Shown here piece by piece: positions 198-49,910 of a stretch of 51,530 nt of DNA. Origin of the DNA: Escherichia coli (GTDB lineage: Bacteria; Pseudomonadota; Gammaproteobacteria; Enterobacterales; Enterobacteriaceae); NCBI RefSeq assembly GCF_003334815.1, contig NZ_QOWO01000030.1. The stretch is one strand, 5' to 3'. Positions within the stretch are counted from its first letter, which is position 1. Each line of letters starts with the position of its first letter. The notes under the pieces were generated by a model that was not told where the DNA came from, searched no databases, and saw nothing but the letters and a program-made list of their open reading frames with translations. Both the position numbers and the translations under genes were made by a program.

Positions 198-890
198 ATG
201 CCTTTAAGCGCACAACAGTTAGCTGCACAGAAAAACCTTTCGTATGTTCTGGCTGAGAAGCTGGCGCAACGGATCTTAAAAGGTGAATATGAACCCGGCA
301 CCATTTTGCCCGGTGAGATTGAGCTGGGCGAGCAATTTGGAGTGAGTCGTACAGCGGTACGCGAAGCGGTCAAAACGTTAACGGCAAAAGGGATGGTTTT
401 ACCGCGACCGCGAATTGGTACTCGGGTCATGCCACAATCGAACTGGAATTTTCTTGATCAGGAATTGCTTACCTGGTGGATGACAGAAGAGAACTTTCAT
501 CAGGTCATCGATCACTTTCTGGTTATGCGTATCTGTCTGGAGCCGCAAGCCTGCCTACTGGCAGCAACGGTTGGCACCGCGGAACAGAAAGCGCATCTCA
601 ATACGTTAATGGCCGAAATGGCGGCATTAAAAGAGAACTTTCGCCGTGAACGCTGGATCGAAGTCGATATGGCCTGGCATGAGCATATCTATGAAATGAG
701 CGCCAATCCGTTTTTGACCTCATTCGCCTCGCTATTCCATTCGGTTTATCACACTTACTTCACGTCAATTACCAGCGACACAGTGATAAAGCTGGATCTG
801 CATCAGGCGATTGTCGATGCGATTATCCAAAGCGATGGCGACGCGGCATTTAAAGCTTGTCAGGCGCTGCTACGCTCACCTGATAAGTGA
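198..890 (+). CDS. yieP: GntR-family transcriptional regulator YieP
   Basis: 230-aa ORF; N-terminal winged-HTH (GVSRTAVREAVKTL) followed by an FCD-type C-terminal domain; purine-rich SD (aaggaag) about 7 nt upstream of ATG; position upstream of hsrA as in E. coli. Confidence 0.9.
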   Translation: MPLSAQQLAAQKNLSYVLAEKLAQRILKGEYEPGTILPGEIELGEQFGVSRTAVREAVKTLTAKGMVLPRPRIGTRVMPQSNWNFLDQELLTWWMTEENFHQVIDHFLVMRICLEPQACLLAATVGTAEQKAHLNTLMAEMAALKENFRRERWIEVDMAWHEHIYEMSANPFLTSFASLFHSVYHTYFTSITSDTVIKLDLHQAIVDAIIQSDGDAAFKACQALLRSPDK

Positions 891-912
891 TAACCCGATA
901 ACAGGACATTGA

Positions 913-2340
913 ATGAGCGATAAAAAGAAGCGCAGTATGGCGGGTTTGCCGTGGATCGCGGCGATGGCCTTCTTCATGCAGGCACTTGATGCCACTATTC
1001 TTAATACCGCCTTACCCGCAATCGCTCATAGCCTTAATCGTTCTCCTCTCGCGATGCAATCAGCCATCATCAGTTATACGCTGACGGTGGCGATGCTTAT
1101 TCCGGTAAGCGGATGGCTAGCCGATCGCTTCGGTACGCGTCGCATTTTTACCCTTGCCGTGAGTCTGTTCACATTGGGTTCTCTGGCCTGCGCACTTTCT
1201 AATTCGCTACCACAGCTGGTTGTCTTCCGGGTTATTCAGGGGATAGGCGGCGCAATGATGATGCCTGTTGCTCGGCTGGCCTTACTGCGCGCTTATCCTC
1301 GTAATGAACTTCTTCCAGTATTGAATTTTGTCGCCATGCCGGGTCTGGTGGGGCCAATTTTAGGCCCCGTTCTTGGCGGCGTGCTGGTCACCTGGGCAAC
1401 CTGGCACTGGATATTTTTAATCAATATCCCCATAGGTATTGCGGGCCTTCTTTACGCGCGCAAACATATGCCCAATTTCACCACCGCACGACGCAGATTC
1501 GATATCACTGGCTTTTTGCTGTTTGGCCTCAGCCTTGTTCTCTTCTCAAGCGGAATAGAGCTATTCGGGGAAAAGATTGTCGCCAGCTGGATTGCCTTGA
1601 CGGTAATTGTCACCAGCATCGGGTTACTGCTTCTCTATATTCTCCATGCACGACGCACGCCAAACCCATTAATTTCATTAGATTTATTTAAAACCCGCAC
1701 TTTCTCGATCGGTATCGTAGGCAATATTGCAACCCGTCTGGGGACCGGCTGTGTACCGTTCCTTATGCCATTGATGTTACAGGTAGGATTTGGTTATCAG
1801 GCGTTTATTGCTGGCTGTATGATGGCACCGACAGCGTTAGGTTCCATTATTGCAAAATCGATGGTTACCCAAGTCTTACGTCGTCTGGGCTATCGCCATA
1901 CGTTAGTGGGGATCACGGTGATTATTGGGCTAATGATCGCTCAGTTCTCTTTGCAATCACCAGCAATGGCTATATGGATGCTGATCTTGCCGTTGTTTAT
2001 ATTAGGGATGGCTATGTCGACGCAGTTTACCGCGATGAATACCATCACACTTGCCGATCTGACCGATGACAATGCCAGCAGCGGTAACAGTGTTCTGGCG
2101 GTCACGCAGCAACTGTCGATTAGTTTAGGCGTTGCTGTAAGTGCGGCCGTCCTTCGCGTTTATGAAGGAATGGAAGGCACAACGACTGTCGAACAATTCC
2201 ACTATACGTTTATCACAATGGGCATTATTACTGTTGCTTCAGCAGCAATGTTCATGCTTCTGAAAACAACCGATGGTAATAATTTGATCAAAAGACAGCG
2301 TAAATCTAAGCCGAACCGCGTTCCATCAGAATCGGAGTAA
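913..2340 (+). CDS. hsrA: MFS transporter HsrA (YieO), 14-TMS drug:H+ antiporter-like
   Basis: 475-aa ORF, highly hydrophobic with MFS signature ([11 protein letters not shown]); 22-bp spacing after yieP suggests co-transcription. Confidence 0.9.
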
Positions 2341-3298
2341 GTTGTAATCGTTGTTGCTGAAGGGTCGGCTGGGTTATCCGATGGATGAGTACATCAATCG
2401 CCAGCTCCCCCAGTTCATCTTTCGGTTGGTGGATAGTGGTTAATGGTGGCGTCATAAAGCTTGCCAGTTCGATATCGTCATAGCCAATCACCGCGATATC
2501 CTGCGGAACCTGTAACTCTGCCTGATATAACGCCTGGTAAACGCCAACAGCCATAGCGTCATTTCCGGTAAAGACGGCCTGAGGACGCAGCGGATGTGAT
2601 AGCAGTTGGCGCATAGCGTCAAACCCGCCGTTAAATTCAAAATCACCAGTGACTTCATAGCCATCAGGAATGTTGAGACCCGCACGTTTCATCGCCGCCC
2701 GATAACCTTCCAACCGCAGGCGCGCCGGAGTTTTATCCAGCGGGCCGGTAATACAGGCGATACGGGTATGACCTTTATCGATCAGATATTGCGTTGCTAA
2801 GTCTCCGCCCAGCAACGAGTTATCCTGAATAAGATCGCTGTCGCCATCGAACGGAGCCCAGTCCATCATCACAGTAGGCACTGTCGGATAACGTTGCATG
2901 ATTTCACGCGAAGGTTGATGCGTTTCGGTGCACAGTAACAGCAAGCCATCAACGCGTTTTTGCATCAGCGTTTCCAGATTGCGATTCATCCGCTGTTCAT
3001 CGCCTTCGGTATTGCAAAGGACGAGACTATAACCGCGTTCGAAGCAGCTGCGTTCAACGCCACGCACCAGTTCTGAATAGAAAGGATTGGTACTGGCAGT
3101 GATCAACATGCCAATGGTATGTGTTTGATTGAGTTTGAGGCTACGCGCCAGAGCTGATGGCGCGTAATTGAGTTCTTTAATCGCCGCTTCAACTTTGGCG
3201 GTAATCGCTTCACTGACGAAGCGATCTTTATTGATAACGTGAGAAACTGTTGAGGTAGAAACGCCCGCCAGGCGGGCAACATCTTTCATTGTAGCCAA
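2306..3298 (-). CDS. rbsR: ribose operon repressor RbsR (LacI family)
   Basis: 330-aa ORF; N-terminal LacI-type HTH ([23 protein letters not shown]); last gene of the rbs cluster; 3' end overlaps hsrA 3' end convergently. Confidence 0.95.
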
Positions 3299-3301
3299 GC
3301 G

Positions 3302-4231
3302 TCACCTCTGCCTGTCTAAAAATGCGTCGATCTCTTCACGCCACGGTACGGAAGGTTGTGCGCCTTTACGTGTTACGGCAATCGCAGCGGCAGCATGGGC
3401 AAAACGAATCGCCTCTGGCAATGGTTTTTCTTCCAGCAATGCCGTGATTAACGCACCGTTAAAGGTATCTCCGGCAGCAATGGTATCGACAGCCTGCACC
3501 CGGAATCCAGGAACGCGCTGACCTTCACCATTCACGCTAGCCCATACACCACGACTTCCTAAAGTAATCAGTACAGTACGGATACCTTTTTCATGCAGTA
3601 CCTGCGCCGCCTTCGCTGCATCTTCATCATTTTCAACACGAATACCGGTGAGCTTTTCTGCTTCCGTTTCGTTTGGCGTAATAATGTCCACCAGCGCCAG
3701 CAGTTCGTCAGGAAGTTCGCGAGCCGGAGCCGGGTTAAGCGCAACGATAGTCTTATTTTGATGGGCGATTTTCGCCGCTGCCATCACACTTTCGAGTGGT
3801 GATTCCAGCTGCATTAATAATGCTGACGCGTTGGCAATACGCTCACGTTGCGCTTCCACCAGCGCCGGGGAAAGGGCAGCATTAGCGCCGGCATGAATAC
3901 CGATGACATTCTCACCTTCGCCATTAACAAAAATCAGCGCCACACCTGTTGATTCGCCTTTGATCACGCTGACCGGAGTAATATCAATGTTATCAGTGGC
4001 GAGCTGCTGGCGAACGCTCTCACCAATGCTGTCATCACCCGTACAGGCAATAAACGCGATATTCGCACCGCTACGCCCAGCAGCCACAGCCTGATTCGCG
4101 CCTTTGCCGCCAAATGCAACCTGATAGTGGTTACCGGTTACGGTTTCGCCTGGAGTAGGAAAAGATTGAAGATTAAGAATGTGGTCAGCATTAATGCTGC
4201 CAAGAACAACGAGGCTGCCTGCGTTTTGCAT
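3302..4231 (-). CDS. rbsK: ribokinase RbsK
   Basis: Track ORF 3302..4258 (318 aa); start placed at internal Met (MQNAGSLVVLGSINADHIL) giving 309 aa as for E. coli RbsK; PfkB-family GG and DTxxAGD motifs present. Confidence 0.92.
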   Translation of the reverse strand: MQNAGSLVVLGSINADHILNLQSFPTPGETVTGNHYQVAFGGKGANQAVAAGRSGANIAFIACTGDDSIGESVRQQLATDNIDITPVSVIKGESTGVALIFVNGEGENVIGIHAGANAALSPALVEAQRERIANASALLMQLESPLESVMAAAKIAHQNKTIVALNPAPARELPDELLALVDIITPNETEAEKLTGIRVENDEDAAKAAQVLHEKGIRTVLITLGSRGVWASVNGEGQRVPGFRVQAVDTIAAGDTFNGALITALLEEKPLPEAIRFAHAAAAIAVTRKGAQPSVPWREEIDAFLDRQR

Positions 4232-4356
4232 ATTCGGGATGTCCATAAAATGCGCCACCGTGTTAGGGTGGCGCGTGCCCTGCTTTTCTTTATATTACAC
4301 GTTCATCTGTCGATGACGTATTTATGTCACCATCAGGTCATACAACCTGATTAAAA

Positions 4357-5247
4357 CTACTGCTTAACAACCAGTTTCAGATCAACCGGATACTTAGCCT
4401 GAACTTTCTCGCCTTTCAGCACTTTATCTGCGGTTTCGACGCCTTTCGCGCCAATCTGATCGGGTAGCTGAGCGATAGTCGCTGCTAGTTTGCCATCATT
4501 CACCGCTTTTTCGCCATCCGGTGTACCGTCAAATCCGACGACCATCACATCCGATTTACCGGCAGTTTGCAGTGCGCGCAGCGCGCCCAGCGCCATTTCA
4601 TCATTCTGCGCGAATACAGCCTGAACATCCGGATGAGCGGTCAACAGGTTCTGCATTACGTTCAAACCTTTAGTGCGATCAAAATCTGCTGGCTGGCTGG
4701 CAAGAACATTAAACTTGTGAGCAGCAACGGCCTGCTGGAAGCCTTCGCCACGTTCACGGGCTGCGGATGTACCAGCAATGCCTTGCAGCTCGATAACTTT
4801 GGCACCTTCACCCGCTTTCTTCGCGATGTAATCACCAGCGATTTTGCCGCCCAGTACGTTATCAGAAGCAATGTGGCTCACCACTTCACCTTTCGTTGCC
4901 TGGCGGTCAAGAGTGATAACCGGGATGTTCGCCTGGTTAGCCATCTTCACAGCATTACCCACTGCGTCGGAGTCGGTCGGGTTAATCAGCAGAATTTTTG
5001 TGCCGCGAACGGTTAAGTCCTGCACGTTCGCCAGCTCTTTCGCCGGGTTGTTCTGGGAGTCCAGCACCACCAGGTTATAGCCAAGTTTATCCGCCTCTTT
5101 CTGCGCGCCATCTTTCAGCGATACAAAGAACGGGTTGTTAAGCGTGGAGACCACCAGCGCGATGGTGTCTTTTGCCATCGCATTCGCACTGACGGTGGCG
5201 CTTAGCGCAACAGCGGAAACCAGGGTAGCCAGTTTTTTCATGTTCAT
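4357..5247 (-). CDS. rbsB: ribose ABC transporter periplasmic binding protein RbsB
   Basis: Track ORF 4357..5253; start set at the third codon ([23 protein letters not shown] signal peptide) giving 296 aa. Confidence 0.93.
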
Positions 5248-5271
5248 ATTCAAGATGTCCTGTAGTCGTTA

Positions 5272-6237
5272 TTACTGCTTTTTGTTGTCTACCAGCACCG
5301 CCAGCAAAATCACCACCGCTTTGACGATCATCTGGTAATAGGAGGAAACACCTAACAAATTCAATCCATTATTAAGGAAGCCAAGAATTAATGCGCCGAT
5401 CAACGTCCCAACAATGCGACCTTTTCCGCCCGCCAGACTCGTACCGCCCAGAACCACCGCAGCAATAGCATCCAGCTCATAGCCAGTCCCCGCCGTGGGT
5501 TGTGCGGAGGAGAGACGCGCCACTTCAATGATCCCGGCCAGCGATGCCAGCAGACCACAAAGAGAATAGACGATGATTTTGATTTTATTGACGTTGATAC
5601 CAGAAAGACGCGTTGCCGCTTCGTTGCCGCCCAGCGCGTAGATGTAACGCCCCAGACGCGTGTGATGCAGCATGTACCAGGCCGCGAGGAAGACAATCCC
5701 CATGATCCAGACTGGCGTCGGTACGCCCAGCGGACGACCAATACCAAACCAGCCAAACAGATCGGCGTTCTCAGTAAAGCCGGTATTCACTGGGCTACCG
5801 TTGGTATAAACCATGGTCACGCCGCGCAGTAAAAGCATCATAACCAGCGTAGCGATAAACGCCTGGACGCGACCTTTCGCTACAATCACCCCGGTTACCG
5901 CACCAATTGCGGCACCTAACGCGAGAGCAGCAGCGACAGCCACCAGCGCATTGACTTCAATGCCGACGATAGATGCAGCAACTGCGCCGGTCAGCGCCAA
6001 CAGAGAACCTACCGATAAGTCGATGCCCGACGTCAGGATCACCAGCGTCATCCCGACCGCCATAATGGCGTTCACTGAGGTTTGCTGGAGAATATTGAAT
6101 AAGTTATTGATGGTGAAAAAGTTCGGGCTTAACGTCGAGACAATCGCGATCAGCACCAGCAGAGCGATAAGCGATTTCTGCTCCATCAGCCACGCTTTCG
6201 TGAAATAACGGCGACCAGAGACAGTCTGGGTTGTCAT
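5272..6237 (-). CDS. rbsC: ribose ABC transporter permease RbsC
   Basis: 321-aa polytopic membrane ORF between rbsB and rbsA; matches RbsC. Confidence 0.95.
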   Translation of the reverse strand: MTTQTVSGRRYFTKAWLMEQKSLIALLVLIAIVSTLSPNFFTINNLFNILQQTSVNAIMAVGMTLVILTSGIDLSVGSLLALTGAVAASIVGIEVNALVAVAAALALGAAIGAVTGVIVAKGRVQAFIATLVMMLLLRGVTMVYTNGSPVNTGFTENADLFGWFGIGRPLGVPTPVWIMGIVFLAAWYMLHHTRLGRYIYALGGNEAATRLSGINVNKIKIIVYSLCGLLASLAGIIEVARLSSAQPTAGTGYELDAIAAVVLGGTSLAGGKGRIVGTLIGALILGFLNNGLNLLGVSSYYQMIVKAVVILLAVLVDNKKQ

Positions 6238-6241
6238 TTTT

Positions 6242-7747
6242 TTACTCCTGATTCACGCGATTAAGCTTGCCCACAGCGGCAGCCATTAACACTTCCTGGG
6301 TGGCCTGCTCACGAGTAAATTCCCCGCTGAGATGCCCTTCATGCATGACGATGATGCGATCGCTCATGCCTAATACTTCTGGCATCTCCGATGACACCAG
6401 AATGATGCTCAAGCCATCGGCTTTGAACTGGTTAATCAGTTGATAGATCTCTTTTTTCGCGCCGACATCTACGCCACGGGTAGGTTCATCAAGGATCAAC
6501 ACTTTGGGGCGTGTCATCAGACCGCGGGCAATCGCCACTTTTTGCTGATTGCCACCGGAAAGCAGACCAATTGCCTGTTCCATCGACGGAGTTTTCACAT
6601 TAAACAGACGAATGAAATCACTCACAGCCTGCTGTTCATCGGCATGCTTCAAACTGCCGCCAGCGCGGCTGAAGTAGCGCAGCGCTGTCAGCGACATGTT
6701 CTCTTTTACTGACATGCCCAACACTAAACCGTCACGTTTACGGTCTTCGGAGATATACACAATGCCGTTTGCCAGGCCATCCTGCGGTGAACGGGTAACG
6801 ACTTCATGCCCATCCAGGGTGACGTAACCGCTGGTGCGCGGTAGTGCGCCGTAGAGCACTTTCATCAGTTCGGTACGACCTGCGCCCATCAAACCAGAGA
6901 CGCCAAGAATTTCGCCTTTGCGTAAAGTAAAAGAGACATCGTTAACGCCAGGTCCGCAGAGATTATCGACTTTCAGGCGGATATCTCCCGGCGCTTTGTC
7001 CAGGTGCGGATATTGATCTTCCAGCTTGCGACCCACCATCATCTCAATCAGCGAATCTTCGGTCAGTGATGCCACTTCGCGCTCAGCAATAAATTGCCCA
7101 TCACGAAAAACGGTAACGTCATCGCAAATCTCGAAGATTTCTTTCATGCGGTGGGAGATATAGACAATACCGCGGCCTTGCGATTTCAGCTCGCGGATGA
7201 CGCGGAACAGGGATTCGGTTTCGGTATCGGTCAGCGCATCGGTCGGTTCATCCATAATGATGACTTTCGACTCAAAGCTCAGCACTTTGGCGATTTCAAC
7301 CATTTGCTGGTCACCGATGGAAAGATCGCCCACCAGCTTGTCGCTTTTAAAGCGCAGGTTAAGTTTAGCCAGCAATTTATCCGCTTCGGCATACATGGTT
7401 TTCCAGTCAATTTTGCCAAAGCGATTAACAAACTCACGACCGAGGAAAATGTTTTCGGCAATGGTCAACTGCGGGATCAGGTTCAGTTCCTGATGGATAA
7501 TCCCAATCCCGGCTTCCTGGGAAGATTTTGGCCCGGTAAATGTCGTTTCTTTCCCCAGCCATAAAAGCGTACCGGCATCGCGAGTATAGATGCCAGTAAG
7601 CACTTTCATCATGGTGGATTTACCCGCGCCGTTTTCGCCCACCAGCGCCATCACGCGGCCCGGATAGACATTTAACGCTGCGCCCGAGAGGGCTTTTACG
7701 CCCGGGAAGGCTTTATCGATGCCTTTAAGCTGAAGTAATGCTTCCAT
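6242..7747 (-). CDS. rbsA: ribose ABC transporter ATP-binding protein RbsA (tandem ABC domains)
   Basis: 501-aa ORF with two Walker A motifs (GENGAGKST and GLMGAGRTE) and ABC signature LSGGNQQK. Confidence 0.95.
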
Positions 7748-7754
7748 GACGGCC

Positions 7755-8174
7755 TCAGAACGTCACGCCAGCACAGAGAATGATATTCGCATACGGAGAA
7801 CATTCTCCGCTGCGAATTACCGCCTGACTTTCTGCGGTTTGTTGTTTGAATTGTTCATGCGTGGTGTAACGAATTTCAATGGTATTTCCCTGGTGTTTTT
7901 GCAGCTGCTCAAGGTGAGTGAGCAACGTTTCGTGGAGTTGCGGATTATGGTGTTTGATCTCTTCCGCGATAATGGCCGCCTCGACCTGCATTTCATTTGT
8001 GACGACGCCCAGCACCTGCATAAAAGAAGGTACACCCTGGGTTAATGCCATATCGATACGCGTTGTACTTTTGGGGATGGGTAAACCAGCATCACACACC
8101 ACCAGCGTATCGGTATGTCCCAGACGGGAGATCACCGATGAAATATCAGAATTAAGAACGGTGCCTTTTTTCAT
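7755..8174 (-). CDS. rbsD: D-ribose pyranase RbsD
   Basis: Track ORF 7755..8210 (151 aa); start placed at internal Met ([16 protein letters not shown]) giving 139 aa; first gene of rbsDACBKR; the RbsR operator palindrome lies immediately upstream. Confidence 0.92.
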
Positions 8175-8186
8175 TTTTTTCTCCAT

Positions 8187-8206
8187 CAGCGAAACGTTTC
8201 GCTGAC
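8187..8206. promoter_or_regulatory. RbsR operator (perfect 20-bp palindrome) in the rbsD leader
   Basis: tcagcgaaacgtttcgctga is a perfect inverted repeat of the LacI-family operator type, 10-15 bp upstream of the rbsD start codon. Confidence 0.8.
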
Positions 8207-8299
8207 CCACAGTTTAATCCTGACTGAGTTGGGAAAACCATCGTGACGTTACGGAAATGTGATCAACCTCGAAACGTTTTACATGGTGATTAACCATGA

Positions 8300-8337
8300 A
8301 AACAAAAACGCCCCCTTATGAAGAAAGGAGGCGTCTG
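8300..8337 (-). terminator. kup rho-independent terminator
   Basis: On the minus strand, a GC-rich hairpin (gacgcctcc...gggggcgt) followed by a T-run immediately after the kup stop. Confidence 0.6.
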
Positions 8338-8340
8338 GCG

Positions 8341-10209
8341 TTAGATTTCGACCTGAGTACCCAGTTCGATAACCCTGTTTGGCGGGATTTCAAATTGATC
8401 TGGTGCACGCAGCGCATTACGTTGCAGCAGCAAGTACAGCTTGCCGCGCAGACGCAAATACCACGGGCGTTTGCCGAGGATCAACGACTCATGCGACATA
8501 AAGAAGGAGGTTTCCATCATCCGGCAACTTAATCCTTCCAGACCGCAGCGGTGGAAAACTTCTTCTACGTTTGGCGTTTCTCGCCAACCATAACTTGCCA
8601 CCACGCGCCAGAAAGTGGGCGACAGTTGTTCAATCTGTACCCGACGGACGTTATGGACATATGGAGCGTCTTCGGTGCGCAGAGTTAACAGAATCACCCG
8701 CTCATGCAATACCTTGTTATGTTTAAGGTTATGCATCAGCGCAAAGGGAATGACGTTGATTGCACGCGACATATACACCGCGGTCCCGGGCACGCGAACA
8801 GGCGGTGATTTCTCCAGCGAAGCAATCATCGCTTCCAGAGAGTTACCATGTTCATGCATCCGCCGCAGCAAGCGGAAACGCTCGCTCTTCCAGGTGGTCA
8901 TCACGATAAACATCACAGTACCGAGGCTCAATGGCAACCAGCCGCCGGAGAGCAGTTTATCGAGGTTAGCGGTGAACAATGGAATATCGACACAAAGGAA
9001 AGCAATCAGGATCAGCGCAACAAAATACTTATTCCAGTGCCAGTTCTGACGTGCCACGGTAGTCGAGAGAATAGACGTCAGCACCATGGTTCCGGTCACC
9101 GCAATCCCGTACGCCGCCGCCAGGTTGCTGGAGTGCTCAAAGCTGACAATCACAATCACGACCGCGACATAGAGCATCCAGTTCACAAACGGAATATAGA
9201 TTTGCCCTGACTCCATTTCGGAGGTGTGAATAATGCGCATCGGCGACAAATATCCCAGACGTACCGCCTGACGCGTCAATGAGAAGACGCCAGAGATAAC
9301 CGCCTGCGAGGCAATTACCGTCGCCAGTGCGGCGATGATCAGCAGCGGGATCAGCGCCCAGTCCGGTGCCAACAGGAAGAACGGGTTCTTAATCGCTTCC
9401 GGGTTCTTTAACAACAGCGCTCCCTGACCGAAGTAATTAAGGGTCAAGGAAGGTAATACGACGGTGAACCACGCCAGGCGAATAGGGAACTTACCAAAGT
9501 GCCCCATATCAGCATACAGCGCCTCGACCCCCGTAATCGACAACACCACTGCCCCTAATGCAATAAAAGAAACCGTTTTGTATTCAAGGAAGAAATGCAC
9601 CGCCCACATTGGATTCAGCGCATGCAGCACTTCCGGGTTAGCAATAATGCTACGTAACCCCAGTCCTGCCAGAATCAAAAACCAGGTCAGCATGATCGGC
9701 GCAAACAGCTTACCGACCATAGCCGTGCCATGTTTTTGAATCATAAATAATAAAGTGAGAACGATAATTGAGAGGGGAACTATCCAGGTATCCAGCTGCG
9801 GGGCGACGATTTCCAGACCTTCAATGGCTGACATCACCGAAATAGCGGGTGTTATGACGACTTCACCATAGAAAAAGCTGCCGCCGATTAGCCCCATAAT
9901 CACCAGCATTGATGTGGTTCGCGCCGACGTATTACGCCCGGCAAGCGACATCAACGTCAGGATCCCCCCCTCACCGGCGTTATCTGCCCGCATCACGAAG
10001 GTGAGATATTTAATGGAAACCACAAAGATTAGCAGCCAGAAGATCAGCGATAAAAAGCCAAACACGGCATCGCGTTCAACGCCAAAACCAAACTGGCCGG
10101 ACAAACATTCACGAAGTGTATATAACGGGCTGGTACCAATATCGCCGTAGACAACTCCAATCGCCGCGAGGGTAATCGCGGGCAATGATTGCTTATTATC
10201 AGTGCTCAT
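8341..10209 (-). CDS. kup: low-affinity K+ uptake protein Kup (TrkD)
   Basis: 622-aa ORF, N-terminal polytopic membrane domain plus C-terminal cytoplasmic domain; matches Kup. Confidence 0.95.
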
Positions 10210-10431
10210 AGACTAGTCTTTCGTTGAAATATGAAATGTGTGCTTAGTCCCTTGGCCCACAAAAAAGCGCACAGTATGCACGATTAACGGCAAAATCGTA
10301 CTCCTAAATGCGGCCACATTAACCTGGCTCAAAGAAAAATACCCCCCCTTTGAGACTATTTTAGCCACCAGCAAGAAACGTCTATACTCGCAATTTACGC
10401 AGAACTTTTGACGAAAGGACGCCACTTCATT

Positions 10432-11928
10432 ATGGCTCACCCTCATTTATTAGCGGAAAGAATTTCCCGCCTGAGCAGTTCGTTGGAAAAGGGGCTTTAT
10501 GAACGTAGCCACGCCATCCGCTTGTGTTTATTAGCGGCATTAAGTGGTGAAAGTGTGTTCCTCCTTGGCCCGCCAGGTATTGCCAAAAGTTTGATCGCCC
10601 GGCGCTTAAAATTCGCCTTTCAGAATGCCCGCGCGTTTGAATATCTGATGACCCGCTTCTCCACGCCGGAAGAAGTTTTTGGTCCCCTTTCTATTCAGGC
10701 GCTAAAAGATGAAGGGCGCTATGAACGTTTAACCAGCGGTTACCTGCCGGAAGCAGAAATTGTCTTTCTGGATGAGATCTGGAAAGCGGGCCCGGCAATT
10801 CTTAATACCTTGCTCACCGCCATTAACGAGCGCCAGTTCCGCAACGGTGCACACGTAGAAAAAATCCCGATGCGTCTGCTGGTGGCGGCCTCCAACGAGC
10901 TGCCGGAAGCAGACAGCAGTCTGGAAGCGTTATATGACCGCATGCTGATTCGTCTGTGGTTAGATAAAGTGCAGGATAAAGCGAATTTCCGCTCCATGCT
11001 GACCAGTCAACAGGATGAAAACGACAATCCGGTTCCTGATGCCTTGCAGGTCACAGATGAAGAATATGAACGCTGGCAGAAAGAGATTGGTGAAATTACG
11101 CTGCCCGATCATGTATTTGAGCTGATTTTTATGCTGCGCCAGCAACTGGATAAATTACCGGATGCGCCTTATGTCTCGGATCGTCGCTGGAAAAAAGCGA
11201 TCCGATTATTGCAGGCCAGCGCCTTTTTTAGCGGTCGCAGTGCTGTTGCCCCGGTAGATCTCATTTTGCTGAAAGATTGCCTGTGGTATGACGCGCAAAG
11301 CCTGAATTTGATACAACAACAAATTGATGTATTGATGACCGGTCACGCCTGGCAACAGCAAGGGATGTTGACTCGCCTTGGCGCGATTGTGCAACGTCAC
11401 CTGCAACTCCAGCAGCAACAAAGCGATAAAACAGCCTTAACGGTAATTCGTCTGGGCGGCATTTTCAGCCGTCGTCAGCAGTATCAACTTCCTGTTAACG
11501 TTACTGCTTCCACTCTGACTCTACTGCTGCAAAAACCGTTAAAACTGCATGATATGGAAGTGGTTCATATCTCCTTTGAGCGTAGCGCGCTGGAACAGTG
11601 GCTGAGCAAAGGTGGTGAAATTCGCGGTAAACTGAACGGTATCGGCTTTGCCCAGAAACTGAATCTGGAAGTTGATAGCGCCCAACATCTTGTCGTTCGC
11701 GATGTAAGTTTACAAGGCAGTACGCTGGCACTTCCCGGTTCATCGGCTGAAGGTCTGCCTGGTGAAATAAAACAACAACTGGAAGAGCTTGAAAGCGACT
11801 GGCGCAAGCAACACGCTTTATTCAGCGAACAGCAAAAATGTCTGTTTATCCCTGGCGACTGGTTAGGTCGCATTGAAGCCAGCCTACAGGATGTCGGTGC
11901 ACAGATTCGCCAGGCACAACAATGCTAA
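10432..11928 (+). CDS. ravA: MoxR-family AAA+ ATPase RavA
   Basis: Track ORF 10408..11928; start placed at [12 protein letters not shown] giving 498 aa; Walker A GPPGIAKS and Walker B VFLDEI present. Confidence 0.93.
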
Positions 11929-13373
11929 CGCTGGATACGCTTAATGTGATGCTGGCCGTCAGCGAAGAGGGATTGATCGAAGAGATGATCATCGCACTGC
12001 TGGCCTCACCGCAGCTGGCGGTCTTCTTTGAAAAATTCCCACGCCTGAAGGCGGCAATCACTGATGATGTTCCCCGCTGGCGTGAAGCGCTGCGCAGTCG
12101 GCTGAAAGATGCCCGAGTCCCGCCGGAACTCACCGAAGAGGTGATGTGCTATCAGCAAAGCCAGCTCCTCTCCACGCCACAGTTTATTGTGCAGCTACCA
12201 CAGATCCTGGACTTACTGCATCGTCTGAATTCTCCATGGGCAGAACAAGCCCGACAGTTGGTTGATGCTAACAGCACGATCACTTCAGCGTTACACACGC
12301 TTTTTCTCCAGCGTTGGCGTTTAAGTCTGATCGTGCAAGCAACGACGTTAAATCAACAGCTATTAGAAGAAGAACGCGAACAACTGTTGAGTGAAGTTCA
12401 GGAACGCATGACGCTGAGCGGACAACTTGAACCGATTCTCGCAGATAACAATACTGCAGCTGGTCGTCTGTGGGATATGAGCGCCGGTCAGCTTAAACGT
12501 GGCGACTATCAGTTGATTGTGAAATACGGTGAATTTCTTAACGAACAGCCGGAACTGAAACGCCTGGCAGAGCAGCTGGGGCGTTCTCGGGAAGCCAAAT
12601 CAATACCGCGCAACGATGCGCAGATGGAAACCTTCCGCACCATGGTGCGCGAACCGGCGACGGTTCCTGAGCAGGTTGATGGTCTGCAACAAAGCGATGA
12701 TATTTTACGTCTCCTGCCGCCAGAACTGGCGACACTAGGGATAACGGAACTGGAGTATGAGTTTTACCGTCGGCTGGTGGAAAAACAGTTGCTCACCTAT
12801 CGCCTGCACGGTGAGTCGTGGCGTGAAAAAGTGATCGAACGTCCGGTGGTACATAAAGATTACGATGAACAGCCGCGCGGGCCGTTTATTGTCTGTGTGG
12901 ATACTTCCGGCTCAATGGGCGGCTTTAATGAACAGTGTGCGAAAGCGTTCTGCCTGGCCTTGATGCGCATTGCTCTCGCAGAAAACCGGCGCTGCTATAT
13001 TATGCTATTTTCCACCGAGATCGTCCGTTATGAGCTTTCAGGCCCACAAGGCATCGAACAAGCAATCCGTTTTTTAAGCCAGCAGTTTCGTGGCGGCACC
13101 GATCTTGCCAGTTGTTTTCGCGCCATTATGGAACGCTTGCAAAGCAGGGAATGGTTTGATGCCGATGCGGTGGTGATTTCTGATTTTATCGCTCAGCGGT
13201 TGCCTGACGACGTGACGAGTAAAGTGAAAGAGCTGCAGCGGGTACATCAGCATCGCTTTCATGCCGTGGCGATGTCGGCACACGGCAAACCCGGCATCAT
13301 GCGCATTTTCGATCATATCTGGCGCTTTGATACCGGGATGCGAAGCCGCCTGCTCAGACGCTGGCGGCGATAA
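11922..13373 (+). CDS. viaA: von Willebrand factor A domain protein ViaA
   Basis: 483-aa ORF whose ATG overlaps the ravA stop (ATGCTAA, 7-nt overlap), indicating translational coupling; VWA MIDAS-like motif DTSGSM. Confidence 0.93.
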
Positions 13374-13377
13374 ATTA

Positions 13378-14370
13378 TTACAGCAGAGAAGGGACGCTCT
13401 CGCGAACAGCAGCTGGCCATACTCCACACTGAACCTGGCCGATATGCGGCAGTTGCAGCAGCAGCATAGTCAAACGAGACTGGCCGATACCGCCGCCGAT
13501 GGTCTGCGGCATTTCACCGCGCAGCAGCGCCTGATGCCACTCCAGCTCCAGGCGATCTTCGTCACCGGTCAGCGCCAGTTGATGCTTCAGCGTGTCGGCA
13601 TCTACACGGATCCCCATGGAGGAAAGCTCAAACGCATCTTCCAGTACCGGGTTCCACACCAGAATATCGCCGTTCAGACCCGCATGGCCCAGCTCTGACG
13701 GGGTGCTCCAGTCATCATAATCCGGTGCGCGCACGTCGTGGCGATGACCATCGCTCAGCTTGCCGCCAATCCCGACAAGGAATACCGCGCCAAGATCTTT
13801 CGCTATCGCCCGCTCACGCCCTTTGGCATCAAGATCCGGATAACGAGACAGTAACTCCTGGCTGTGTACGAAGTGGATCTGATCCGGCAGGAACGGTGCC
13901 AGGCCAAACTCTTCGCTAACCGCAGCTTCGGTTGCTTTAATTCCCGCCCAGATCGCCTCTACCGTGCTTTTCAGAGTCGAGAATTGACGCTCACCGTCGC
14001 CCATTACGCGTTCCCAGTCCCACTGGTCAACATAGACCGAGTGCAACGGAGAAAGACGGTCTTCATCGGGGCGAAGGGCTTTCATGTGCGTGTACAGCCC
14101 TTCGCCCGCGCTGAAGTCGTGTTGCCCTAAGGTCTGACGTTTCCACTTCGCCAGTGAATGAACCACTTCGAACTGGGCATCAGGCAGAGCTTTCACTTTT
14201 ACCTGCACCGCTTTTTCACAGCCCGACAAGTTATCCTGCGTGCCATCCCCCACACGGCTAAGAATCGGCGCCTGGACTTCGATCAGCCCCAGACGTTCTT
14301 CCAGTTGACGAGAAAAGTGAGATTTCACGAAGCTAATTTGACGTTGTTTGGCAATGTAAGCGGTTTTCAT
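13378..14370 (-). CDS. asnA: aspartate--ammonia ligase AsnA (asparagine synthetase A)
   Basis: 330-aa ORF matching AsnA; divergent from asnC across a 151-bp control region. Confidence 0.95.
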
Positions 14371-26024: not shown

Positions 26025-26324
26025 GCGCGTGTGACCCGTCCTGAATAGCGTTCACATAGATCCTGCTGATATAAAACCCCCCTGTTTTCCTGTTTATTCA
26101 TTGATCGAAATAAGAGCAAAAACATCCACCTGACGCTTAAATTAAGGTACTGCCTTAATTTTCTGCAGACAAAAGGCGTGACGATGGTCGAAAATGGCGC
26201 TTTCGTCAGCGGGGATAATCCGTTATTGAACAATTTATCCTCTGTCCATTTCACGATGAAAAAAATGTAGTTTTTTCAAGGTGAAGCGGTTTAAATTCGT
26301 TCTCAAATTACAGTCAGGACGCGT

Positions 26325-47800: not shown

Positions 47801-48760
47801 TTATGCCATCGACGCGTAAAGGTTTTTAATGGTTTCCCGTAACCAGACGATCTTCGGATTATGGCTGTTCCGTTTATGCCACAGCAGGGTAAAAGGAACT
47901 TCCAGCTTTTTTTGCTGGCTTTCGTCAAACGGGAGAGGAAGAGCAACCAACGGCAGTTGATGGAGTTGATTGTAGTACTGACAGTAGCGCGGCGCGGTCG
48001 CCAGTAGCAGATTGTCGGGTTGCGCTGCCATAAACAGTGACTGCTCGAATTCCGGCAGGCTCATAGCAATCGTGCGTTCGCGTCCCAGCTCCTGTAACAC
48101 ATTGTCCAGCGCCCAGGTATCGCTCTGTTCCCAGCAAATGCTGATATGCGGATAACGTAAGAAGGTGTCCAGATTCCACGTTTGATGCAGTGCCGGATGA
48201 TCTTTGCGTAACCAGACGCAGGGCACATCACTAAACAGCACTTCATAATCAATGGCTAACGGTAGCGAGCTTAACAGCTCCCGCGAGCGAGGATGGCTTT
48301 CGCGACCGGAAAAACCGATATCCACTTCACCACGAGTAATGGCATCTAAGGAATCGTAATCCCAGTTACGTAATTTGATGGTCGCCTGCGGGTAACGTTG
48401 GTAGATCTGTTTCGACAGCGCATTAAGCATGATCATCATCAGCGGTGATTCCGCCGCCAGCTCAAACTTCAGGCCGCGCGGTGTCTGGTGGTGCGGTTTA
48501 TCCAGCAGCAGGTTGCTCATTTGCATCCACTCCGCCAGATTTTGCTCCATGCTGACCATCAGCGGTGTGGGCGACAGACCCAGCGGTGAGTTCACAAAGA
48601 GCGGGTCGTCAAACCACGCTCTTAACTTTGCCAGCGACTTACTCACCGCCGAAGGTGTCACGTTTATCCGCTTCGCCGCTTTGGTTACGCTGCGCTCCTG
48701 CATCAGCAGTTGCAGACAAAGCAGCAGATTGAGATCAAGCGTGGTGATGGATTTCTTCAT
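47801..48760 (-). CDS. yidZ: LysR-family transcriptional regulator YidZ
   Basis: Track ORF 47801..48769; start placed at [16 protein letters not shown] giving 319 aa; LysR HTH and substrate-binding domain; overlaps the 3' end of mdtL. Confidence 0.88.
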
Positions 48761-49910
48761 GAGCGGCAACGGGGCGTCCAGGCGCGACGAACATAATCAG
48801 CAACAGGCTCACTATGCTACAGGCAATCAGAATCCCGATCAGCATATTCCATGCGCCGATACCAACCACCGCTGCCAGCCAAATCCACAGTGACGAACCG
48901 CAAACCTGCGCAATACCTAAGGTCGAGCTGGCTACGCCCGCGCGTAATGAAAACGGCCCTAACGCCTGACTCATCGCCACACCAAAACCTACCGAGAAAC
49001 CGGCGCAAATCAGCGTGATACCAAACAGAGAAACCGCATGGGAAGGTGAAACGGCAAGAGTGATCCCCGCCGCCAGGAATAACACCTGCGAGGTGATCAT
49101 CAACGTACGTGGCTTAAAAATTCCCAGCGCAAATGGCGTGGAGAATGAAACGGTCATGCTGACGCCAGCGGTCAGCGCCATAATGGTGGCGTATTCACCG
49201 CGCTCAAACCCCATGATTTCCATCAGCAATACCGGTGACGTGTTGACGAAAGTGAGGATCACCGAAACGCTGAGGGTGGTGATAACAACACGGCTGAGGA
49301 AAAAACGGTTAAGCAGCGACTCGCTATTTTCTCGTGGTTTATCCGAAGCTGCGGGGGCCGCTGGGCGCGTTTCTTTTAAAATAAACAAAGACAACATCAG
49401 TACCGCGATGCCCATCATTGCCATCGCCCAGAACAGACTCTGCCACGGGAATTTAAGCATAATCAGATGTCCGAGCACTGGCGCTAACACCGGAATGATG
49501 CAGGTAATACCGTTGAGTAATGACAGCACTTTAGCCCGACGTCGATCATCCAGCGTGTCGCGCAAAATAGCGAACGCCACTACGTAACAACAGCCTGCGC
49601 CCAACCCCTGTAGAAATCGGCCTGCAAGAAATAACGTGCTGGTTTCAGCCAGTGAACAGAACACCGAGGCAATAATAAATAGCGCCGCGCCGGGTATGGC
49701 GACCGGCTTTCTCCCTGAACGATCGGCCACTTTACCGGCAAATAACATCGCAGCTGCCATCCCCGCCAGATATACGGAGAACGCAATATGCAACTGCGCT
49801 TCGCTGGCATTGAGATCGGCGGCGATGCGCGGTAAACCAACGAGGTACATATCAATCCCGGCGGGATAAAGTAAAACCAGGGCAAAACTACAAATCAAAA
49901 AGCGGGACAT
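48735..49910 (-). CDS. mdtL: MFS multidrug efflux transporter MdtL
   Basis: 391-aa 12-TMS ORF. Confidence 0.92.

Follow-up and report, generated by a model that had tools for sequence, protein, structure and literature searches.

The convergence of hsrA and rbsR in Escherichia coli raises the question of how two genes that meet tail to tail, with no DNA between them, come to be arranged in this way and where their transcripts end. We analysed a 51,530-nucleotide stretch of contig NZ_QOWO01000030.1 (the window). Within it, hsrA occupies 913..2340 on the plus strand (475 amino acids; stop TAA at 2338-2340), as given by its open reading frame, its translation and the K-12 annotation. The rbsR coding sequence runs on the minus strand from a TTG start and occupies 2306..3298 (330 amino acids). 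Its TAG stop appears as CTA at 2306-2308 on the plus strand. The two coding sequences therefore share 35 bp (2306..2340, both strands), the tail-to-tail overlap that an initial annotation of this DNA had described, and about the last 11 codons of hsrA lie inside rbsR. In this phase the third codon position of rbsR is the second codon position of hsrA.

Our reading is that the overlap is, with high probability, real but incidental, a by-product of drifting gene ends, and that each transcript ends inside the partner gene.

Reality of the overlap and its constraints

The window was compared with the reverse complement of MG1655, from which it differs by 1 mismatch in 11,001 bases, and K-12 coordinates are obtained as 3941525 minus the window position. 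RefSeq K-12 contains the identical overlap (rbsR 3938227..3939219, plus strand; hsrA 3939185..3940612, minus strand). Of 5426 complete E. coli genomes, 5414 carry the junction sequence. The overlap is thus already known: it is in the reference annotation, and the pair has already been studied.

HsrA is an MFS transporter of 475 residues; in most strains its RefSeq PGAP name is 'mdtD'. The Pfam MFS_1 matches span residues 17-406 and 381-461 and do not reach the tail, residues 462-475. RbsR is a 330-residue LacI-family ribose repressor. Its residues 2-330 are identical to the solved 'Ribose operon repressor' 9ny7, and its alignment with PurR extends to residue 328. An overlap of this kind could come from a misread frame, an error in sequencing or a gene end called wrongly, and the final 10 residues of HsrA, which are unconserved and outside the Pfam match, would fit such an artefact. 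Against this, the position of a stop is set by its reading frame, and the hsrA frame is continuous with the conserved last transmembrane segment. The rbsR frame passes through the conserved RbsR C-terminus, the full 330 residues are in the solved RbsR chain, and thousands of genomes sequenced independently of one another show the 35-nt state, as do 35 loci of several genera. We consider an artefact to have next to no chance of being the explanation. Because both frames are supported by homology as far as their stops, no other start or stop codon removes the overlap, and hsrA and rbsR are a genuine convergent overlapping pair.

The two proteins are unequally constrained where they share DNA. 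Among the Enterobacteriaceae loci compared, the RbsR tail (...LTP.L..RGS[AV]*) is near-invariant and the HsrA tail is variable. Entropy within the overlap is 0.17, 0.26 and 0.61 at rbsR codon positions 1, 2 and 3, respectively. Variability therefore tracks the rbsR codon positions, so that the most variable sites of the overlap are hsrA second positions, and with its peak at rbsR third positions the extended HsrA tail is less constrained than the RbsR coding sequence. Third-position variability in rbsR is somewhat lower in the overlap (0.61, over only 10 sites) than over the preceding 90 nt of rbsR (0.98), which may reflect some constraint from the HsrA tail or the RNA. The C-terminal residues of RbsR, part of the conserved LacI-family core, would thus dictate the shared sequence. 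The last ~10 residues of HsrA would be a passively encoded tail beyond the last transmembrane helix, probably cytoplasmic.

A series of junction states in Enterobacteriaceae

To the window we added 80 further Enterobacteriaceae loci. hsrA and rbsR adjoin in all 81, the extremes being a 3-nt gap and a 53-nt overlap. Gaps are few (3 nt in one locus, 2 nt in seven). Overlaps measure 4 nt in 26 loci, 9 nt in six, 24 nt in one, 35 nt in 35 and 53 nt in five, so that the commonest states are the 4-nt overlap, in which the stop codons interlock, and the 35-nt overlap. The interlocked state, of TTAA/CTAG type, is found in many genera. We infer that 4 nt is ancestral and 35 nt derived from the genera carrying each state, not from a rooted tree.

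Three separate routes of extension are visible in the junction sequences: a frame change, a stop loss and read-through of the rbsR stop. The frame change leads to the 35-nt overlap. It would have occurred in the last hsrA codons, in a lineage that includes Escherichia, Salmonella, Citrobacter and part of Enterobacter, and would have skipped the interlocked stop. The hsrA frame would then stay open over 35 nt of rbsR antisense, where it meets an in-frame stop for the first time. In one Kosakonia, stop loss by a TGA-to-GGA change takes a 9-nt overlap to 24 nt. In Lelliottia and Huaxiibacter, read-through of the rbsR stop takes the 35-nt overlap to 53 nt. The series also includes a case in which both genes are extended.

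The length reached is the length expected. When an antisense frame enters the 3' end of a window gene in the phase of hsrA/rbsR, it meets a stop after a median of 33.5 nt (interquartile range 20-59; 42 genes), so 35 nt represents no excess. The three antisense phases of rbsR itself run 42, 4 and 35 nt. Such overlaps are also frequent. E. coli has 663 overlapping adjacent gene pairs, 75 of them convergent and 586 co-oriented (PMC4161906), and at the level of transcripts, overlapping 3' ends with a mean of 286 nt have been published for 276 of 370 convergent operons.

These features agree with a model of 3' extension proposed by Kingsford, Delcher and Salzberg (2007) and summarised in PMC3887535. 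In the model as in hsrA/rbsR, the genes lie tail to tail, relatives show minimal 4-nt interlocked stops, the added tail is unconstrained, and extension runs on for a random length to the first in-frame stop. We see no essential difference between the two. The states at this one junction (gaps of 2-3 nt and overlaps of 4, 9, 24, 35 and 53 nt) make an unusually clean illustration of that model.

Transcript ends at the three junctions

The second convergent pair in the window, viaA and asnA, is almost as tight. viaA occupies 11922..13373 on the plus strand (483 amino acids, 482-483 across genera; stop TAA at 13371-13373), and asnA occupies 13378..14370 on the minus strand (330 amino acids; stop at 13378-13380, TTA on the plus strand). 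Between them lies only ATTA (13374-13377), confirming the 4 bp first reported for this spacer, which measures 0-5 nt in 7 genera. It was also correctly noted that hsrA/rbsR has no room for an intergenic terminator, and viaA/asnA has none either. It follows that the two transcripts of each pair must overlap. Overlapping transcription at both junctions is supported by published data. rbsR-hsrA and asnA-viaA are among the 165 convergent excludons of the MG1655 'excludome' (PMC12288877), rbsR-hsrA being seen in at least 50% of 58 RNA-seq sets, and RNase III products captured with p19 map to both loci (PMC7373196). At hsrA/rbsR the captured product (row 'hsrA rbsR' of Table S3; 1.85 and 2.72 RPM) is a 22-bp duplex with 2-nt overhangs. 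When its positions are transferred to the window, it maps inside the overlap at 2305..2328 (hsrA-sense 2307-2328, rbsR-sense 2305-2326).

The initial annotation proposed shared termination signals, which in their simplest form would be a single bidirectional intrinsic terminator within the overlapping coding sequence that stops both transcripts. At the very end of viaA, a GC-rich hairpin (GCCGCC...GGCGGC, about 13345-13368) sits beside the A/U-rich spacer. At hsrA/rbsR nothing in favour of such a terminator was found. Neither strand has a terminator-like hairpin with its U-tract within about 380 nt of 2306-2340, the junction RNA folds no better than shuffled sequence (z = -0.98 and -1.05 for the two strands), and Term-seq data from three growth conditions list no 3' end here (PMC7815308 Supplementary file 1). 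Scans for terminator and promoter consensus sequences returned nothing at the hsrA/rbsR or viaA/asnA junctions, and Rfam gave no RNA family at these two or at mdtL/yidZ. Bicyclomycin-sensitive regions sit 136-293 nt beyond the stops instead (PMC7815308). A shared terminator is therefore very improbable. On the rbsR-sense strand, E. coli has a long hairpin at about 2224-2283, which we separately considered as an embedded rbsR terminator and rejected. It has no U-tract, its fold is non-significant, and its outer stem relies on E. coli-specific codons for 'DGNN' that are absent in other genera.

Instead, each transcript appears to end separately, inside the open reading frame of its partner. For the hsrA strand, antisense to rbsR, a published Rho termination region falls at 2602 on the plus strand (K-12 3938923, minus strand; PMC7815308), 262 nt past the hsrA stop; since the scoring works with 800-nt windows, this position is approximate. 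In untreated cells, coverage there falls from 102 upstream to 32 downstream; with bicyclomycin the two values are 164 and 143 (Rho score 2.78, p = 7.6e-6; PMC7815308 Supplementary file 2). Ahead of this region, in the untranslated hsrA-sense RNA, lies a stretch with more C than G (2461..2580, plus strand; 121-240 nt past the hsrA stop), where C/G reaches 1.62 in 80-nt windows. It is a candidate rut-like region that may load Rho. Past each of the four stops (hsrA, rbsR, viaA and asnA), at a distance of 100-300 nt, there are windows in which C/G is 1.2-1.8, although RNA antisense to a coding sequence is commonly rich in C in any case. For rbsR-sense RNA inside hsrA, neither a 3' end nor a Rho region is mapped (PMC7815308).

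The viaA/asnA pair would work in the same manner, with the addition of a 3'-end hairpin for asnA embedded in the viaA reading frame. The Rho termination region of viaA-sense RNA lies at 13509 on the plus strand (K-12 3928016, minus strand), 136 nt past the viaA stop (Rho score 3.91; PMC7815308 Supplementary file 2). It coincides with a p19-captured RNase III duplex inside asnA (13508..13531, 135-158 nt past the viaA stop; PMC7373196 Table S3). For the asnA-sense RNA, which is antisense to viaA, the Rho region follows the asnA stop by 293 nt and lies at 13085 on the minus strand (K-12 3928440, plus strand; Rho score 4.92, p = 5.5e-11; PMC7815308 Supplementary file 2). This RNA also has a Term-seq 3' end at K-12 3928243 (plus strand; PMC7815308 Supplementary file 1), which is window position 13282, 96 nt past the asnA stop and 8 nt after the main stem of a hairpin at 13285..13341 (minus strand). 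This hairpin is embedded in viaA codons 455-472, folds with z = -2.0 and has a consensus fold in 7 genera. viaA nucleotide identity is 95.8% at the hairpin, as against 76% over the whole gene, and 10 of 16 codons are invariant there, as against 9.5% elsewhere. This is the lowest variation of 297 windows (resampling P < 5e-5). The hairpin probably either terminates the asnA transcript or shields its 3' end.

Termination inside the partner gene would be mainly the work of Rho acting on RNA that is no longer translated. For this step there are published data on the hsrA, viaA and asnA strands, and we infer it for the rbsR strand. The arrangement resembles the Rho termination of antisense and untranslated RNA described by Adams et al. 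2021 (PMC7815308, where an earlier genome-wide Rho study, Peters et al. 2012, is cited). As there, termination falls in antisense RNA, here antisense to the partner gene; C outnumbers G in this RNA, as is common opposite a coding sequence. It differs in that the rbsR-sense strand has no mapped region and that asnA-sense RNA has, in addition, a hairpin-associated 3' end.

The third tight junction is of another type. mdtL and yidZ overlap on the same strand by 26 bp (48735..48760, minus strand), between the mdtL stop (TGA, 48737-48735) and the yidZ start (ATG, 48760-48758). This overlap too had been claimed and is borne out, the annotation of another strain agreeing. All three junctions stand as such in the RefSeq annotation. 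Besides ATG 48760, yidZ has in-frame starts at codon 20 (ATG) and codon 34 (GTG). The codon-20 start is the only one inside or just after the overlap, and its use would lose the beginning of the LysR HTH_1 domain (residues 10-66), so no alternative start would leave the domain whole. Unlike the convergent pairs, mdtL/yidZ is an ordinary within-operon junction at which a terminator is not expected. As in the within-operon overlaps associated with translational coupling (PMC4161906), the downstream start precedes the upstream stop on the same strand, but 26 nt is longer than the usual operon overlap of 1 or 4 nt. No Shine-Dalgarno-like motif was seen just upstream of the yidZ ATG.

Coupling or by-product

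The hsrA and rbsR mRNAs are complementary by necessity, and some double-stranded RNA forms and is cut by RNase III, as the duplex mapped to the overlap shows. A cut within the overlap would, by our reasoning, remove the stop codon of both mRNAs and so dampen both. With transcription of both genes being weak, the dampening is probably small. A stronger proposal is that the pair is a selected convergent excludon. Transcription of the ribose operon through rbsR would suppress hsrA, or the reverse, as polymerases collide and RNase III cuts the duplex that the two mRNAs must form, and selection would maintain the absence of a spacer. The adjacency and tightness kept in 81 of 81 loci fit this proposal, as do the place of rbsR-hsrA in the published excludome, in which excludon pairs show higher synteny (PMC12288877), and the RNase III duplex within the overlap. 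Yet genes without a spacer stay adjacent trivially, since no break can fall between them without harm to a gene; an ISEc52 insertion in strain 1162C truncates both hsrA and rbsR. Neither the length nor the sequence of the overlap is conserved, the duplex is rare (about 2-3 RPM; PMC7373196), and published signals of premature termination inside rbsR and hsrA suggest that little transcription reaches the junction (PMC7815308). Sliding synonymous-site variability of rbsR and hsrA over the 81 loci gave no clear embedded element. At the rbsR 3' end it does not drop (1.41, against a family-wide gene mean of 1.13), and in hsrA the dips at codons 417-441 and 447-466 are modest (0.87-0.96, against a mean of 1.30) and lie in and around the last transmembrane segment. 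In the literature we found no reciprocal expression data for the pair. Taken with these points, a selected excludon seems unlikely.

Convergent excludons (ExcludonFinder, PMC12288877; Conway et al. 2014, PMC4161252; mscL-arfA, PMC10070815) share with hsrA/rbsR the opposite strands, the overlapping transcripts and the duplex cut by RNase III, but here the complementarity goes beyond the 3' UTRs to include coding sequences. A functional excludon is defined by reciprocal regulation, whereas rbsR-hsrA and asnA-viaA are listed by overlapping transcription only. Any regulatory role of the hsrA/rbsR junction is putative. That the junction, lacking spacer and terminator, is a selected device by which expression of the HsrA transporter and of the ribose repressor limit one another is, in our estimate, a slightly longer shot still. 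If it were true, full-length hsrA and rbsR mRNAs would pair over their last codons and RNase III cleavage would strip both stops. The 35-nt extension of the Escherichia/Salmonella/Citrobacter lineage would then strengthen the effect, making the duplex longer than the ~22 bp that RNase III needs. More likely than such coupling is purifying selection at synonymous sites on the asnA hairpin within viaA codons 455-472.

We regard the drift of gene ends as the preferred reading of hsrA/rbsR and its significance as low, since the overlap is annotated, the excludon listing, the Rho regions and the RNase III duplex have all been published, and E. coli has some 75 such overlaps (PMC4161906). What the present analysis adds is the comparative series from 4-nt interlocked stops to overlaps of 35 and 53 nt, with rbsR dictating the sequence. 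At these junctions the lack of room for a terminator would be solved by terminating within the neighbouring gene. The asnA hairpin within viaA would be a small example of a transcription signal that constrains the codons of a neighbour, which is relevant to any recoding or refactoring of this region.

The hsrA/rbsR overlap and its setting

The reading frames of hsrA (913..2340, + strand) and rbsR (2306..3298, - strand) share 35 bp at 2306-2340. This tail-to-tail overlap, reported in the initial annotation, is borne out by the sequence and is identical in RefSeq K-12. Read directly, hsrA ends ...AAA TCT AAG CCG AAC CGC GTT CCA TCA GAA TCG GAG TAA, and rbsR, on the other strand, ends ...CTT ACT CCG ATT CTG ATG GAA CGC GGT TCG GCT TAG. 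Only the stops matter in such an overlap, and their position is set by the reading frame. Alternative starts or stops, which had been held out as a way to remove the overlaps, fail to do so; the hsrA, rbsR and yidZ frames are all backed by homology or domains. Over residues 2-330, RbsR matches the solved 'Ribose operon repressor' (chain 9ny7) without a difference, and it aligns with PurR to residue 328 (PurR side of the alignment, ...VHPRLIERRS). The hsrA frame is continuous with the last hydrophobic segment, and Pfam MFS_1 matches extend to HsrA residue 461. The overlap is an ordinary, already documented feature.

The window is a piece of the E. coli chromosome, and its first 6 kb have matches in all 5,426 complete E. 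coli genomes of the collection. Apart from one mismatch, window 525-11525 is the reverse complement of MG1655 NC_000913.3 3930000-3941000, and coordinates were converted accordingly (K-12 coordinate = 3941525 - window position). Gene order is yieP-hsrA, rbsRKBCAD and kup (- strand), ravA-viaA, asnA (- strand) and asnC-mioC, followed by mnmG-rsmG, the atp operon, glmUS, pstSCAB-phoU, bglGFBH, yieLK and, further on, yidZ, mdtL and tnaB. For most E. coli genomes RefSeq PGAP gives 913-2340 the name 'mdtD: multidrug transporter subunit MdtD', and the K-12 name is hsrA; this looks like a naming quirk, not a different gene. Rfam has a single match in the window, STnc410 (26084-26241, - strand, 188 bits), an enterobacterial sRNA between atpC and glmU.

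Overlap length, remodelling and constraint

An overlap of 35 nt is not beyond chance. When the antisense strand was read inward from the 3' ends of 42 window genes to the first stop, run-on in the hsrA phase (overlap length mod 3 = 2) had a median of 33.5 nt (interquartile range 20-59). The three antisense phases of rbsR itself reach a first stop after 42, 4 and 35 nt, so 35 nt is the length expected for a frame that has missed its first stop. PMC3887535 summarises missed-stop run-on as the account of convergent overlap lengths given by Kingsford et al. 2007.

An HsrA scan of one genome per species gave 80 Enterobacteriaceae loci, and rbsR lies directly downstream of hsrA on the opposite strand in 80/80. 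From a conserved anchor inside the gene, overlaps were counted to the next in-frame stop. With the window added (81 loci), the junction is a 3-nt gap in 1 locus, a 2-nt gap in 7, and an overlap of 4 nt in 26, 9 nt in 6, 24 nt in 1, 35 nt in 35 and 53 nt in 5. The 4-nt state consists of interlocked stop codons (e.g. ...gcT TAG on the + strand with CTA/TTA as rbsR stop) and is carried by Pseudocitrobacter, Pluralibacter, Franconibacter, Siccibacter, Yokenella, Trabulsiella, Buttiauxella, Raoultella and others. Judged from which genera carry it, this state is probably ancestral. Escherichia, Salmonella, Citrobacter, several Enterobacter, Leclercia and Intestinirhabdus have the 35-nt state. Sequence comparison places a shift of the hsrA frame just ahead of the junction in these species relative to the 4-nt species (...cac aaa aCT AAA CCG versus ...cac aag aaa gcT TAG), so the frame no longer meets the old stop. 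A stop-codon point mutation in one Kosakonia (TCAGGCGGA versus TCAGGCTGA in relatives) takes 9 nt to 24 nt. In the five 53-nt loci (Lelliottia, Huaxiibacter and related loci), the rbsR stop is lost and six more codons follow (...ERGSVSAGGDL*), adding 18 nt of rbsR extension into hsrA to the 35, so that both genes are lengthened. Given these several distinct states, the junction has been remodelled several times, always remaining essentially spacer-free.

Within the overlap, it is RbsR that is conserved. Its tail hardly varies across loci (QRLQLTP[VIE]L[MVI]xRGS[AV]*), whereas the HsrA tail beyond ...DGRNLIKERHK differs among genera. Second positions of hsrA codons coincide with third positions of rbsR codons. 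Among the 35 loci in the 35-nt state, per-site entropy is 0.17, 0.26 and 0.61 at rbsR positions 1, 2 and 3, and variability thus peaks at hsrA second positions, the opposite of the pattern of a constrained protein. The invariant HsrA residues (K-P, P-S and the final E) are accounted for by invariant RbsR codons. As a caveat, entropy at rbsR third positions is lower in the overlap (0.61, a figure from only ten sites) than in the adjoining 90 nt of rbsR (0.98). With all 81 loci included, variability in the last rbsR window is not lowered (1.41 versus a gene mean of 1.13).

In E. coli 1162C (NZ_CP051659.1, locus 4102-5352) an IS3-like ISEc52 lies inside the overlap, equivalent to window ~2338. 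RefSeq labels both hsrA and rbsR 'missing C-terminus' there, so one insertion damages two genes.

The mdtL/yidZ and viaA/asnA junctions

The 26-bp overlap of mdtL (end 48735) and yidZ (ATG 48760) is real, and both genes are on the same strand. In-frame yidZ starts near the 5' end are ATG 48760, ATG at codon 20 and GTG at codon 34. The LysR HTH_1 domain of YidZ starts at residue 10, model position 1, so beginning translation further downstream would cut into the DNA-binding domain. The two genes form one unit and overlap on the same strand, as several hundred E. coli pairs do (PMC4161906), and a terminator between them is not expected. By eye, no Shine-Dalgarno-like motif was seen immediately 5' of the yidZ ATG, so its translation may rely on ribosomes that have just completed mdtL. 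At the very start of mdtL (window 49908-49910 region; K-12 3891617, + strand) lies a published Rho termination region, a hint of premature termination at the 5' end of this gene. Two further same-strand overlaps, absent from the initial annotation, are ravA/viaA (7 nt, 11922-11928) and pstC/pstA (1 nt, 32086), both placed by RefSeq annotation of another strain.

Between viaA, whose stop ends at 13373, and the asnA stop codon from 13378, only ATTA intervenes, the 4-bp gap first described. ViaA is 482-483 aa across genera, and spacers in six further genera are 0-5 nt (Citrobacter, Klebsiella and Buttiauxella 3, Kluyvera 5, Cronobacter 2, [Enterobacter] lignolyticus 0), so tight spacing is ancient here as well. 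Beyond the viaA stop, a Rho region is mapped at 136 nt (K-12 3928016, - strand, window 13509; score 3.91), and beyond the asnA stop another is mapped at 293 nt (K-12 3928440, + strand; score 4.92) (PMC7815308). A p19 duplex, double-stranded RNA cut by RNase III (PMC7373196), maps to 13508-13531 and coincides with the former.

The asnA-sense RNA contains a long hairpin (CCCGGUAUCA...UGAUGCCGGG, then UUUGCCGU) at 13285-13341 (- strand), inside viaA codons 455-472, with a fold z of -2.0. It ends 8 nt before a Term-seq 3' end (K-12 3928243, + strand, window 13282; PMC7815308). Nucleotide identity of this segment (54 nt) across seven genera is 95.8% versus 76% for all of viaA, and invariant codons for conserved residues make up 10/16 there versus 9.5% elsewhere. 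It has the lowest synonymous variability of 297 18-codon viaA windows (amino-acid-matched resampling, P < 5e-5), and one-sided stem changes retain G-U pairs possible on the asnA-sense strand only. From these sequence comparisons, the hairpin appears to serve asnA as a terminator or to protect its 3' end, and being embedded in the viaA reading frame it would constrain viaA synonymous sites. A literature search found no published description of it.

Transcript ends and RNA duplex at hsrA/rbsR

A shared termination signal had been proposed for this junction. A consensus scan found no terminator-like site near 2306-2340 on either strand, folds of 131 nt per strand do not outdo shuffled sequence (z = -0.98 and -1.05), and no Rfam family was found at the junction; a shared intrinsic terminator is therefore unsupported. 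Published maps supply part of the picture. Adams et al. 2021 (PMC7815308) report a Rho region antisense to rbsR (K-12 3938923, - strand), where coverage falls from 102 to 32 untreated and from 164 to 143 with bicyclomycin (Rho score 2.78, p = 7.6e-6). It corresponds to window 2602, 262 nt beyond the hsrA stop, a coarse position since the score is built on 800-nt windows. A stretch with C > G (C/G up to 1.62) lies just upstream, 121-240 nt beyond that stop. Their tables list another Rho region inside hsrA (K-12 3940281) and, within the first 160 nt of rbsR (+ strand, K-12), a Term-seq 3' end at 3938325 plus a Rho region at 3938387; for rbsR-sense RNA inside hsrA they give neither a 3' end nor a Rho region. 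This suggests that little transcription gets to the junction from either side under their conditions.

That Term-seq end is 98 nt into rbsR (window ~3200, - strand), just past a hairpin (ATCGCTTCGTCAGTGAAGCGAT, 3204-3225) that the terminator scan also flagged on the + strand. The Rho region lies ~60 nt beyond, and together they suggest premature termination within rbsR. The start codon of rbsR is TTG (3296-3298, - strand), three bases past the rbsK stop; such a rare start so close to the upstream gene suggests that the repressor is translated at a low level, possibly by coupling. The small RNA RbsZ (K-12 annotation; 4247-4480, - strand) derives from the 3' end of rbsB together with the spacer between rbsB and rbsK. 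It has a strong Term-seq 3' end (K-12 3937278) and probably limits transcription getting to rbsK and rbsR.

The two RNAs do meet, according to published excludon and duplex data. Both rbsR-hsrA and asnA-viaA are among 165 convergent excludons (neighbouring opposite-strand genes with overlapping transcripts), each seen in 50% or more of 58 MG1655 RNA-seq sets (PMC12288877). Table S3 of Huang et al. 2020 (PMC7373196) lists p19-captured, perfectly paired 22-nt duplexes with 2-nt overhangs and at least 1 RPM on both strands. Its 'hsrA rbsR' row (AUGGAACGCGGUUCGGCUUAGA / UAAGCCGAACCGCGUUCCAUCA; 1.85 and 2.72 RPM) maps to 2305-2326 (- strand) and 2307-2328 (+ strand), inside the 35-bp overlap. Duplex formation needs no read-through, because each strand sits within the coding sequence of its mRNA. 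Cleavage here would strip the stop codons from both mRNAs, and the low read numbers suggest that this is a minor fate.

The initial interpretation, that tight junctions imply transcriptional interference or shared termination signals, is thus half right. Overlapping transcription stands, on the excludons and p19 duplexes; a shared terminator is not supported, with no site and no significant fold, and functional interference is hypothetical. Most likely, hsrA was extended neutrally at its 3' end into rbsR, a neighbour that it would always have abutted. Transcripts would terminate inside the partner gene, and the low level of RNase III-processed duplex would be a side effect of the overlap.
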